The notes under the pieces were generated by a model that searched no databases, was not told where the DNA came from, and saw only the letters and a program-made list of their open reading frames with translations. Below, in pieces: positions 21,556-24,366 of a stretch of 64,000 bases of DNA. Numbering within the stretch: the first letter of the stretch is position 1; every line of letters starts with the position of its first letter. Source of the DNA: an uncultured Legionella sp. (GTDB lineage Bacteria > Pseudomonadota > Gammaproteobacteria > UBA6186 > Azoamicaceae); NCBI GenBank assembly GCA_964522825.1, contig CAZFXA010000002.1, positions 23,626 to 87,625 of the forward strand, written 5' to 3'. Both the position numbers and the translations under genes were made by a program.

Positions 21556-22328
21556 ATGAAAATGATTGTACGCTCCCTCTTTTTTCTAAGTCTAGTTCTG
21601 TGTCTTTCCGTTTGTTCAAAAATTAACCCTCCCTTCATTCTGTTTTAGTTTACTCTAAAGCCCCACAGACTTTTGAAGAGGCTAAAAGGGTTGCTTGGAA
21701 GATTTTTGCTCATCACCCACTAAGCTTTTATTGTGGTTGCCGCTTTAATCGTCAAGGGTCCGTTCAAACAGAATCTTGTTCCTATAAACCCACCGTTTTA
21801 AATGCTAGAAACTTTAAAATCGAATGGGAACATATTGTGCCTGCCAAAAAACCAGGGGAAGATTTAGCCTGTTGGCATTATAAGCTTTGCATCAATCAAG
21901 AAGGTAAGCCCTATAAAGGAAGAGCTTGTTGTCGGCACAATAAAGTCTTTCAGCGCCGAGAAGCCGATTTGCATAATCTAGTGCCCGCATTGGGTCTTTT
22001 AAACCAGGCCCGTGGCACACTACCTTTTGGGATCCTGAAATTTTCAACGCCTAATTTTATGGGTTGTCCTCTGAAGATTAGCCACAAAGAAGGCATGGTC
22101 GAACCACCTGTTGCTATCCGAGGGGTGATTGCGCGGACCTACTTGTACATGCGCGATCAGCACGGTATTCATCTCTCTAAGGCGGAGAAATGACAGTATG
22201 AACGATGGCATCAGCAATACCCAGTTGACGCCTGGGAACTAGAATGGGACCATTTAATTCAAAGAGTTCAAGGATATTCTAATTCTTATAGAAGAGTTGG
22301 TGTGTTGAAAAAGCTACTTAACTTCTAG
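21556..22328 (+). pseudogene. endA: Endonuclease I (EndA-family) pseudogene: frameshift after the signal peptide plus in-frame TGA
   Basis: The signal peptide MKMIVRSLFFLSLVLCLSVCS starts at ATG 21556, and that frame stops at 21646-21648. The mature domain continues in another frame: APQTFEEAKRVAWKIFAHHPLSFYCGCRF..KIEWEHIVPA..DLHNLVPALGLLNQARG..IARTYLYMRDQHG. An in-frame TGA lies at 22191-22193, and EndA-like sequence continues after it (QYERWHQQYPVDAWELEWDHLIQRVQGYSNSY). Confidence 0.7.
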
Positions 22329-22961
22329 GTTTCGGCGTTTCTGTAATTGACCAATAAATTCTTGTAGCGATTGAAGTTGTTCTTCAGGCGCAGTATTAAC
22401 AAACGCCTGTATTTCTTGACGGAGTAAATTATCATTGGAGGCCGGCTGCGGTCTTTTAGCTAAGATAGATGTGGATTTCTTCTGGGAATCCGGTAAAGAT
22501 CTTTGATTTGAAATTGCTTGTTGATCAGGATTAATCAAAAAGCGAGATTGAAAATTAGTATATAAAATGCCATAGGTAAGCATTTTTCTAGCGTATTCAG
22601 CTTCGGTGTTAGAGTCAAGTTCTATATCGGTAGCCAATGCTGAAAAAATTTGTGTGAATCGCTCTGTATTAATGTTTTCAAAATCTACCGTTTGTTCTTC
22701 AGTCACCCGCTGGTCTCTATCACTCACCACGACAATTTGGCAACCCATCAGCTGAGATAACTTATAAGTTAAGGCTAAACATCTTAGCTCTTCTTCATCG
22801 CCAGGCACCGCTGGATTAAATAGCGCGTATAAACCTAAAACACCTTCTACACCGGGCCTAAAGATTTTTAATGCCTCAAACCCAAGCTCTCGAGCTATCT
22901 CTCTGCAAGCTTGTATGTCCTGGCTTTTTGCAAAAACTTGATGAATTGTCGGCATATACAC
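22314..22961 (-). CDS. Hypothetical protein (215 aa), downstream partner of the tandem-HEPN-like gene
   Basis: Co-directional with the 439-aa gene and 85 nt downstream of it. AT-rich. No recognisable catalytic motif and no MNT-type GS..DxD signature. The C-terminus is helical and charged. Confidence 0.6.
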   Translation of the reverse strand: MYMPTIHQVFAKSQDIQACREIARELGFEALKIFRPGVEGVLGLYALFNPAVPGDEEELRCLALTYKLSQLMGCQIVVVSDRDQRVTEEQTVDFENINTERFTQIFSALATDIELDSNTEAEYARKMLTYGILYTNFQSRFLINPDQQAISNQRSLPDSQKKSTSILAKRPQPASNDNLLRQEIQAFVNTAPEEQLQSLQEFIGQLQKRRNLEVK

Positions 22962-23046
22962 CCCTCCCCCGCAAAACCTTTTAGTTTTAATTTTAACATT
23001 TTATTCAATAAAAAACAATATTCAGCTGAATTTCAAAAGTCACTGT

Positions 23047-24366
23047 TTAAGGTCTATCAGATCTTGGACTCTCGTTACTACTATCTTCACTACCATAATC
23101 ACCAACCAAGCCTTTTCCTTGTTCTTCATGATCACTACTGCTTGCGTGTTCACTAACATTTTCTAAATCGGGCATTACTATTAAAATAGATCTTTCACTT
23201 TCTTCATGGGGAAGAATGCCGCCAGAAGCTTGAACAGCTTCAAGACTAAAAAGCATAGTAGAAGGACTTGTAGAGGCTTCAGATTGTTGTGTGTTGATAC
23301 TAGGGTCTGAGTGAATCGCCTCAGATGTTGCCAAGTGTGCCTGTTGAGATGGTTTAGGGATAATGGCTTTAAACAAATCGGAAATTACTTTTCTTTTATC
23401 AATGAATCTATCTCTTTCTCTTTTAGCTGTGGTTTCTAAAGAATGCATATTGGGATGAGCAAGATAATTCCTTAGATCTTGAGCATGCGCTAATACTGCA
23501 TAGGCAAACCCAAGGTCTACTCTTTGTGCTAAAACGCTATCCATTAAATCACAGACCATCGTATTTTTTGTATACTCATTATAAATTTGACATAAACTTT
23601 TGATACAAAAATTTAATGCTCTTTCAAAACCCGTTTCACCCAAAAGTTTTTTCAGGTCCTCTTGATGATCCAAAGCCCATTCAAACAATGCCATCTCTCT
23701 TAACAGGGCATAAGAATATTGAGGCAAATCAAGCGCTTTATGATCAGGGGTTGAAATTTCACCTTCAAAAAAAAGGTCTCCAACATCTTTTTTTTGATTT
23801 CCCATTGTTTCTTTAATGGTTTTCATGGCTTGATCTAAAAGGTTTACATTCTCACCTAAGAATTCCAAAGATTCTAAATCCTGCAACAAAATCGACTGCT
23901 CTTGTTCTGTAGCATACAAAAAATCATGCGTGCAAGCATTTCTTAAATCTATAATTTTTTTTAAATCAGGGTCTTTGAAATCAGCCGCTAACTTTTTTAA
24001 CTTTGGAGGCATTTCTGTAAAATCTCTACCATATTTTCCTTCGCGTAACCAGGTTAAAGTATCACCAATCAAACAAATAGATTGTATTAATGCGCGTTGC
24101 ATAAGAATTTTTTGTTCAGATAACAACTCAGATGCCGAACTGCGGTAAAGTTCAACCAATCCAAAAAACTGGTCGATTTCTTTTATGGTTCTTTCATAGG
24201 CAACAGACGCACGCTCGGATTCTTTTCTCTGAATTCTTTGTTTTTTTAATGGTGGTTGCATTTGTGTAGAATAATCGATGATAGTGAATTTCGCAAGCAC
24301 AATATTCCCATAACGCAACAAGTTTGATAACCAGTTGCACAAGACCGTCTTTCTTAGATACCTCAT
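23047..24366 (-). CDS. Hypothetical protein with two RNxxxH (HEPN-type) motifs and an acidic/Ser-rich C-terminal tail
   Basis: 439 aa. Motif 1 is IDLRNACTHDF (R142-H147, nt 23926-23943). Motif 2 is QDLRNYLAHPN (R299-H304, nt 23455-23472). Each lies near the end of a ~150-aa helical-looking segment. The start codon is uncertain (M1 or M36). Confidence 0.45.
   Translation of the reverse strand: MRYLRKTVLCNWLSNLLRYGNIVLAKFTIIDYSTQMQPPLKKQRIQRKESERASVAYERTIKEIDQFFGLVELYRSSASELLSEQKILMQRALIQSICLIGDTLTWLREGKYGRDFTEMPPKLKKLAADFKDPDLKKIIDLRNACTHDFLYATEQEQSILLQDLESLEFLGENVNLLDQAMKTIKETMGNQKKDVGDLFFEGEISTPDHKALDLPQYSYALLREMALFEWALDHQEDLKKLLGETGFERALNFCIKSLCQIYNEYTKNTMVCDLMDSVLAQRVDLGFAYAVLAHAQDLRNYLAHPNMHSLETTAKRERDRFIDKRKVISDLFKAIIPKPSQQAHLATSEAIHSDPSINTQQSEASTSPSTMLFSLEAVQASGGILPHEESERSILIVMPDLENVSEHASSSDHEEQGKGLVGDYGSEDSSNESPRSDRP

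Follow-up and report, generated by a model that had tools for sequence, protein, structure and literature searches.

A possibly HEPN/MNT-derived gene pair, with a predicted tandem-HEPN protein, in the transfer operon of an F-type integrative and conjugative element from an uncultured Legionella-like bacterium

The stretch of DNA analysed here (the window, 64,000 nucleotides (nt) of contig CAZFXA010000002.1 from an uncultured Legionella sp.) contains an F-type integrative and conjugative element (ICE), within whose transfer (tra) operon lie two adjacent minus-strand genes that had been singled out in a sequence-only reading of the window. The larger, at 23047..24366, is an open reading frame (ORF) with an ATG start and encodes a predicted tandem-HEPN protein of 439 amino acids (aa); the smaller, at 22314..22961, has a GTG start, encodes a 215-aa partner protein for which homologs were found, and is separated from the large gene by an 85-nt spacer (22962..23046, minus strand), all as the sequence-only reading had described. 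The pair is given about an even chance of being a strongly diverged descendant of the HEPN/MNT (minimal nucleotidyltransferase) toxin-antitoxin (TA) systems, neutralised by binding and carried as cargo in a variable slot of the ICE of an uncultured, Legionellales-like gammaproteobacterium.

On the plus strand, the F-type transfer operon runs through TraK, TraB and TraC (18899-21442) to the position of the minus-strand pair and continues with a trhF-like S26 peptidase gene, downstream of which follow a 223-aa ORF without assignment, TraU, TrbC, TraN, TraF, TraH, TraG, TraD and a TrwC-type relaxase, all on the same strand. As the pair sits between traC and the peptidase gene on the opposite strand, the operon is interrupted by it, and its GC content (0.36 in the large gene and 0.40 in the partner gene, versus 0.46 in the flanking tra genes) agrees with its earlier description as AT-rich cargo. 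Homologs of the large protein start near residue 36-47 and residues 1-40 of its AlphaFold model are not confident, so that translation of the large gene may in fact begin at M36 (nt 24261), for a protein of ~404 aa. The database copy of the partner, P0002, is 213 aa long and starts at an ATG two codons in, ~6 nt downstream; if this start is used, the intergenic gap becomes ~91 nt.

Two RNxxxH motifs in the large protein had first drawn attention to the locus, and both are located where they had been reported, each preceded by Leu. Motif 1, RNACTH (residues 142-147, 23926..23943, minus strand), stands in the context IIDLRNACTHDFLY; motif 2, RNYLAH (residues 299-304, 23455..23472, minus strand), has the family form LRxxLAHPNM. 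When the large protein was shuffled 20,000 times, at least two RNxxxH motifs arose with a frequency of 2e-4.

Relatives of this protein are few and remote. When 5.8 billion proteins were searched by word index, the 439-aa sequence retrieved nothing but itself and the family alignment only two members, while an exhaustive HMMER scan of 1.84 billion representatives recovered 9 relatives, at E-values between 7e-36 and 1.5e-4. None of these is named or has a Pfam domain, and they are 22-36 % identical over the full-length alignment. The family has been found in only ~10 sequence clusters, all from uncultured bacteria. A scan of species-representative genomes with the family pattern found nothing, the PLSDB plasmid collection held no DNA or protein match for either gene, and the sequences of the PDB, queried with the whole family, with either domain and with the partner family, yielded chance matches only. 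Pfam, NCBIfam and PADLOC provided no significant match for the large protein, and PHROGs nothing useful.

Despite this divergence, the motifs are closely conserved. In motif 1, residues R142, N143, H147, F149, L150 and Y151 are invariant in 9/9 sequences, and the family alignment has a further conserved block, ICLIGDTLTWLR, upstream of it. Motif 2 is invariant at L298, L302, A303, H304, P305 and N306 in 8/8 sequences; position 299 is Arg in seven of these and Lys in one, and at position 300, where N, D, I and K all occur, most have N or D. The family therefore has the hallmark by which the HEPN superfamily is recognised, namely R-x4-6-H with a polar residue after the Arg, conserved among its members. 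The sequence-only reading had named a lack of conservation of the motif residues among homologs as grounds for abandoning its proposal; both R...H motifs are kept at 22-36 % identity, and the proposal survives this check.

The two motifs fall in separate helical domains. The N-terminal domain (residues 43-200, 23767..24240, minus strand) is HEPN-like, with matches to HEPN_RiboL-PSP and HEPN_Cthe2314 below the Pfam cut-offs, and the C-terminal domain (residues 201-345, 23332..23766, minus strand), a possible second HEPN, bears conserved IKNICQxYxDY and LRxxLAHPNM blocks. The family consensus of the N-terminal domain matches HEPN_RiboL-PSP with E = 9.7e-4 over profile positions 42-183 of 191, scoring 19.5 bits against a gathering score of 28.4; the window's own N-terminal domain matches HEPN_Cthe2314 (PF18730) with E = 0.013 (15.9 bits, gathering score 27.1), and the consensus HEPN_AbiU2 (PF18734) with E = 7.8 (6.3 bits, gathering score 26.8). 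For the C-terminal domain the sole HEPN-type profile match is that of its consensus to the PADLOC profile CARF2--CARF_HEPN (E = 0.014), at the motif-bearing end. HEPN-clan families lead the Pfam list for the N-terminal consensus and the PADLOC list for the C-terminal consensus, and HEPN is the only superfamily that recurs among the weak profile matches of the large protein. An AlphaFold2 model built from the 9-sequence alignment is all-helical, with block-mean predicted local distance difference test (pLDDT) values mostly >90 over residues ~50-340 and dips to 65-82 around 150-180 and 270-280. Taken together, these data point to the N-terminal domain as very probably a HEPN domain and somewhat favour the same assignment for the C-terminal domain; the two motifs could then form an intramolecular composite site.

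Beyond residue 345 the large protein ends in a disordered tail (residues 346-439, 23050..23331, minus strand; pLDDT <50 from residue 351), whose acidic, Ser-rich character had been noted earlier and is borne out by its composition of 21 % Ser and 19 % Asp+Glu, with an isoelectric point of 4.2. All homologs have unalignable tails of ~70-180 residues (the count beginning 35 residues past the AHPNM block), and throughout the family these are long, disordered and rich in Ser, Asp, Glu and Lys. A short motif, GL-x-Y followed by an acidic/Ser cluster, is represented in the window by LVGDYGSEDSSN (23074..23109, minus strand); with the family pattern [GS]L[VG]x0-3-Y-[GDE]-[STD]-[DES], a pattern that was chosen post hoc, it occurs in 6/9 tails (window, P0008, P0009, P0012, P0013 and P0015), where 0.25 would be expected and 0/5000 shuffles reach 6. 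Several family tails also have K-rich patches resembling nuclear localisation signals. Translocated effectors often have long disordered tails of this kind, which are seldom seen in TA toxins.

The two genes are linked well beyond the window, which bears out the genetic linkage on which the sequence-only reading had made its proposal depend. A partner homolog adjoins the large gene in 8/9 lineages, and the pair can therefore be regarded as a conserved module: it is adjacent in the window, L011, L015, L016, L017, L020, L018/19 and L102, even at identities to the window's proteins of only 22-44 %. Downstream of P0008, P0009, P0010, P0011 and P0013, at ~50-120 nt and on the same strand, lies a gene for a 141-221-aa protein that aligns with the first ~135 residues of the partner at 22-37 % identity; for P0012 the partner gene is upstream on the opposite strand, and in L102 (JGI metagenomes) the start of a partner gene lies 53 nt downstream of the family member, the contig ending within the gene. 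Close partner relatives (44-84 % identity) are found on contigs without a relative of the large protein nearby. The partner stands alone in the related ICEs L001-L005 and in L007-9, and the large gene alone only in L010. Such an asymmetry, in which the partner can do without the large gene but the large gene is almost always accompanied, would be expected if the partner were an antitoxin or immunity protein and the large protein the toxin; more generally, a conserved adjacent pair in which the antitoxin can stand alone and the toxin rarely does is the arrangement of type II-like TA systems. A survey of homologs had also been proposed with a view to association with defence islands: the conserved pairing emerged from it, and no other defence genes were recognised among the neighbours shown with Pfam labels.

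Two earlier interpretations of these contexts were set aside. The pair was first read as not conserved, from the close partner homologs L001-L009, a view overturned by the contexts of the distant large-protein homologs. A 21-aa remnant in L006 is not relied on as evidence for toxin-gene deletion, as the L006 segments are circularly permuted relative to the window.

The partner protein comprises a core (residues 11-96, 22674..22931, minus strand) and a C-terminal helical hairpin (residues 174-210, 22332..22442, minus strand) that follows a disordered linker (143-173) in the AlphaFold model; the hairpin is kept in 7/12 partner sequences and absent from the short forms. An AlphaFold2 model from 12 sequences, with block-mean pLDDT ~82-95 over residues 20-130, gives the core an alpha-beta-beta-alpha-beta-beta arrangement (helix 13-25, strands 28-34 and 42-48, helix 54-72, strands 76-80 and 91-93, then further helices). 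When this model was compared with 350,542 PDB chains using Foldseek, the best match was 5yep_A (E = 0.024), and ranks 1-3, 6, 9 and 11 were MNT proteins, comprising MntA of S. oneidensis and 1wot. The chains 5yep_A, 7aer_A, 6m6w_A, 6m6v_A, 6m6u_A/F and 7bxo_A/E matched with E = 0.024-0.28 and Foldseek probabilities of up to 0.94 (7aer_A), and 1wot, a minimal nucleotidyltransferase, with a probability of 0.98 and a root-mean-square deviation of 3.4 Å over 78 columns. Ranks 12 and 14, 7ae2_B and 7ae9_H, are counted only as chains from a third HEPN/MNT system. As few such chains exist in the PDB, the presence of two independent MNT proteins and of third-system chains near the top is unlikely to be due to chance, and the partner probably has an MNT-derived fold, to judge from the model. 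A PDB sequence search lists the HepT sequence of the S. oneidensis entries under chains B onward, which leaves chain A as the second component of the complex, taken here to be the MntA antitoxin; an assignment of the 5yep_A-type matches to HepT, which had come from the wording "chain A of HepT" in a published account (PMC7641770), was rejected for this reason.

The catalytic residues of such a fold are missing. Pfam gave no nucleotidyltransferase match for the partner or its consensus, and none of the residues of GSX10DXD is present in the partner family, with no G-S and no conserved acidic residue in strands 28-34, 42-48 and 76-80: strand 1, where G-S is expected, ends LFK/R-P/S, strand 2, where D-x-D is expected, reads LGIYAxF, and strand 3 reads QIVVVS. 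The sequence-only reading was thus correct that the partner lacks the MNT nucleotidyltransferase signature, but its listing of the protein as an unknown can be revised, as the confident model best matches MNT antitoxins. The partner core also has a weak PADLOC match, to PDC-S09 (E = 0.002).

The closest known system is HepT/MntA, a type VII TA system exemplified by S. oneidensis SO_3166/SO_3165 (PDB 5yep, 7aer, 6m6v). DUF86/HepT toxins have the signature RX4HXY, in which the Tyr at H+2 is AMPylated, and MntA needs GSX10DXD to AMPylate HepT (PMC7641770). Like this system, the pair described here consists of two genes encoding an R-N-x3-H protein and a small partner, with a predicted partner fold that matches MntA best and a motif context, [IL][IL]xLRNxxxHx[F], resembling the RX4HXY signature (PMC7641770). 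Its context is also that of mobile elements: an ICE at tRNA-Met in the window, an integrase fragment in L011 and a resolvase in L019. The differences are nevertheless extensive, as here two motif domains occupy one chain, whereas HepT is a homodimer of ~130 aa; the AMPylated Tyr at H+2 is replaced by the invariant F149 in motif 1 or by N306 in motif 2; the partner, without GSX10DXD, cannot AMPylate; and both proteins have long disordered regions. PF01934, PF08780 and PF01909 have no match in the pair. With neither RX4HXY nor GSX10DXD nor the canonical gene order, each of which was tested, the family falls outside HepT/MntA type VII, in line with the earlier statement that this is not a canonical HepT-MntA pair.

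Other comparisons are more distant. Among HEPN families, HEPN_RiboL-PSP (PF18735), HEPN_Cthe2314 and HEPN_AbiU2 are the best profile matches of the N-terminal domain, that to RiboL-PSP spanning most of the profile including the motif helix; the RiboL-PSP and AbiU2 matches appear only with the family consensus as the query. Cas13 and other single-chain, two-HEPN ribonucleases (RNases) likewise have two R-x4-H motifs in one chain, here ~155 residues apart, that could form a composite site, but the large protein has only 439 aa, no CRISPR RNA-binding lobes, and no sequence or fold match to them, and in the 64-kb window there is no CRISPR array or CRISPR RNA family, nor are there tandem repeats near the pair. 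Fused MNT-HEPN proteins (FhepTA, PMC13000451; L102 33-731) bring together the same superfamilies and indicate that the HEPN/MNT architecture is plastic, but these fusions keep GS...DxD and RNxxxHxY, and rely on AMPylation. The L102 example (33-731, minus strand) is a canonical fusion (LYGSRARG...SDIDLAV, RNVTSHTY), encoded by a 7.4-kb contig that also carries a tandem-HEPN family member; hhalign comparisons of it with the family profiles of the large protein and the partner gave nothing. Legionella effector-metaeffector and effector-immunity pairs share with the present pair the adjacency of the genes in Legionellales, the disordered C-terminal regions and the eukaryote-like domains in cargo neighbours, but the pair has no homology to any named effector.

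The cargo at the position of the pair differs between related elements. Related ICEs from other metagenomes (L001 1-10233; L002 1-8248) have the same traC, endonuclease-I and peptidase flanks, with nucleotide identities to the window of 90 % for TraC, 87 % for endonuclease I and 85 % for the peptidase region, and larger, different cargo between them, so that the traC-trhF gap is a variable cargo slot. This cargo includes a 1128-aa OTU protein, an OTT_1508 deaminase, several unknown genes and an orphan, shortened partner gene (179 aa); an NCBIfam scan of the cargo proteins of the related ICEs gave no match and no effector family. In the window, the left edge of the slot, between traC and the pair, is marked by a decayed, EndA-like endonuclease-I gene (21557..22312, plus strand): its signal-peptide ORF stops after ~30 codons, a 118-aa fragment (21837-22193) matches Pfam Endonuclease_1, and the frame is broken again after this, whereas L002 has an intact 222-aa endonuclease I at the identity given above. 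For the host RpoD, the best match, with 99 % identity, comes from an uncultured gammaproteobacterial metagenome-assembled genome (MAG), and the next best, at 70 %, from an uncultured Legionellaceae MAG; genes near other family members encode ankyrin (Ank)-repeat proteins and a TLC ATP/ADP translocase. Gene content (Ank repeats, TLC and OTU) suggests that the carriers of the family are intracellular bacteria, the taxon having been checked for the window only.

On the reading preferred here, the pair most likely derives from a canonical HepT-MntA pair. The large protein would be an RNase made of two HEPN-like helical domains in one chain, each contributing one R-x4-H motif, so that a single polypeptide does the job of the HepT homodimer, and the small protein would keep the MNT fold of MntA as a pseudoenzyme that has lost GSX10DXD. 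The loss of these residues from the partner and the replacement of the acceptor Tyr by Phe suggest that the large protein is neutralised by stoichiometric binding, in a type II-like manner, and not by the AMPylation of type VII; for the ICE that carries it, the pair would be a module for addiction or abortive infection. The toxicity and RNase activity of the large protein, and the HEPN fold of both of its domains, are predictions of this reading.

A number of observations weigh against it. No HEPN or nucleotidyltransferase profile reaches its curated cut-off, the best being the 19.5 bits against 28.4 obtained with HEPN_RiboL-PSP, and Foldseek, which the sequence-only reading had suggested for each half, matched no HEPN structure in the PDB or BFVD when given the full-length AlphaFold model: only spurious helical-bundle and G-protein-coupled receptor matches were returned, small helical domains in a two-domain query being a hard case for this method. 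The HEPN membership claimed earlier has the conserved motifs and the recurrence of HEPN among weak matches on its side, and the lack of a curated-threshold match and of a HEPN structure against it. An hhalign comparison of the N-terminal and C-terminal halves places the motifs in register but is not significant (E = 0.19), and the case for the C-terminal domain as HEPN comes down essentially to its motif, with position 300 variable. The Foldseek search of the partner gave no match at E <= 1e-3, the leading MntA and 1wot chains having E = 0.02-0.1 at probabilities of 0.84-0.98. The gene order departs from the canonical one, in which mntA is upstream of hepT and usually overlaps it, in that the HEPN-like gene comes first here, with a gap of 50-120 nt in 7 lineages and a divergent arrangement in one. 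P0015 keeps both motifs, and neither a partner nor a remnant of one was found near it. Finally, the long disordered regions in both proteins and the conserved tail motif would be unusual for a TA toxin, and carriers with Ank repeats, TLC and OTU would fit a host-directed role as well.

These last points lead to a different proposal, in which the large protein is a host-directed secreted effector, its tail an export signal and/or host-targeting motif, and the partner an immunity protein or metaeffector that silences it inside the bacterium. The effector-like long tails make a secreted RNase with a dedicated immunity protein a live alternative, albeit an unlikely one. It gains from the kinship of the host RpoD to that of the Legionellaceae MAG (70 %, as against 99 % to the gammaproteobacterial MAG), from the Ank-repeat and TLC translocase genes near family members, from the OTU and OTT_1508 deaminase proteins in the same slot of related ICEs, and from the tails themselves, which are long and disordered in all members, with the acidic Tyr motif in 6/9 and K-rich patches in several; moreover, some Dot/Icm effectors of L. 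pneumophila, Lpg2073 among them, are reported to contain HEPN domains (PMC11696984). The only secretion system seen in the window, however, is the conjugative F-type one, no NCBIfam effector family matched the cargo proteins and the tail motif is not a recognised signal, while the orphan-partner pattern and the MNT-like fold are equally explained by a TA origin. The effector and TA readings are not mutually exclusive. In its most specific form, which is distinctly unlikely, the proposal would make the large protein a type IV-secreted tandem-HEPN RNase of amoeba-associated, Legionellales-like bacteria, with the GLxxY-acidic/Ser tail motif directing export or host targeting and the MNT-derived pseudoenzyme serving as immunity protein; if true, a TA pair would have been re-purposed for inter-kingdom attack.

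Anti-phage defence by abortive infection, with the partner holding the tandem-HEPN RNase inactive until an infection cue, would suit the mobile, AT-rich context and the many HEPN families that act as abortive-infection effectors (PMC3710099), and has weak echoes in PADLOC through the matches of the partner core to PDC-S09 (E = 0.002) and of the C-terminal domain to CARF_HEPN (E = 0.014). As neither of these is significant, the labelled neighbours include no recognised defence genes, and the carriers are apparently intracellular, where phage pressure is thought to be low, this explanation is judged improbable. That the motifs are not catalytic at all, the pair being a non-toxic helical scaffold or nucleotide-binding regulator with its adaptor and the likeness to HEPN and MNT convergent or vestigial, is a little less probable again: all of the HEPN and MNT evidence is indeed below threshold, several HEPN lineages are non-catalytic (PMC3710099) and the partner is clearly no enzyme, but an invariant R-N-x3-H trio and a second R/K-x4-H have been kept across 22-36 % identity. 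Such strict conservation of R-N-x3-H across deep divergence is hard to explain without a chemical role, and two RNxxxH motifs would be met by chance with a frequency of only 2e-4.

HEPN/MNT systems have been described as the most abundant predicted TA family, and their known mode of neutralisation is AMPylation of a Tyr beside the RNase motif. In the present pair both halves of this chemistry, the catalytic residues of the partner and the acceptor Tyr, are missing, yet the genes are linked across deep divergence. If this reading is confirmed, the pair would be a recorded case of enzymatic (type VII) neutralisation giving way to a binding-only (type II-like) form, and its large protein would be a compact, guide-independent RNase whose one chain bears two HEPN motifs. 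Single-chain, two-HEPN proteins have been discussed as possible precursors of Cas13-like enzymes. As the family lies outside Pfam, NCBIfam and PADLOC and comprises only ~10 clusters, annotation pipelines call it hypothetical. It also marks the variable traC-trhF cargo slot in an ICE lineage that carries effector-like genes elsewhere.

Between the large gene and the peptidase gene lies a divergent intergenic region (24367..24672) with a candidate promoter and operators. A minus-strand promoter-like site, a sequence-based candidate, occupies 24627-24598 upstream of the large gene, and palindromes at 24416-24439 and 24597-24616 are possible operator sites, the second having perfect 9-nt arms and overlapping the promoter-like site.

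The ICE is inserted at tRNA-Met, adjoining rpoD, and has a tyrosine integrase gene at 6173-7357. In the window, 6069-7357 comprises tRNA-Met and, directly after it but on the other strand, this integrase; the region lies just downstream of tsaD, dnaG and rpoD and is likely to be the left end of the element. Between the integrase and the tra genes, an AT-rich gene (8955-12197, minus strand) encodes a 1080-aa protein of STAND type, with a LuxR-type helix-turn-helix, an NB-ARC NTPase and tetratricopeptide repeats. Further along, 48158-52921 contains helicase pieces (ResIII/DEAD N-terminal halves at 48158 and 51381; Helicase_C at 52145) around a 736-aa ORF that bears nine "helicase associated" (HA) repeats, with a 195-nt tandem repeat at 50743-51096, and looks like a region of duplicated or fragmented genes. 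Besides the full-length rpoD at 4062-5957, the window has two extra sigma-70-family genes (317 and 469 aa) at 55762-58114; the 469-aa copy retains region 1.2 and part of the non-essential region, and may have arisen by duplication of part of rpoD, close to where the element ends on the other side.

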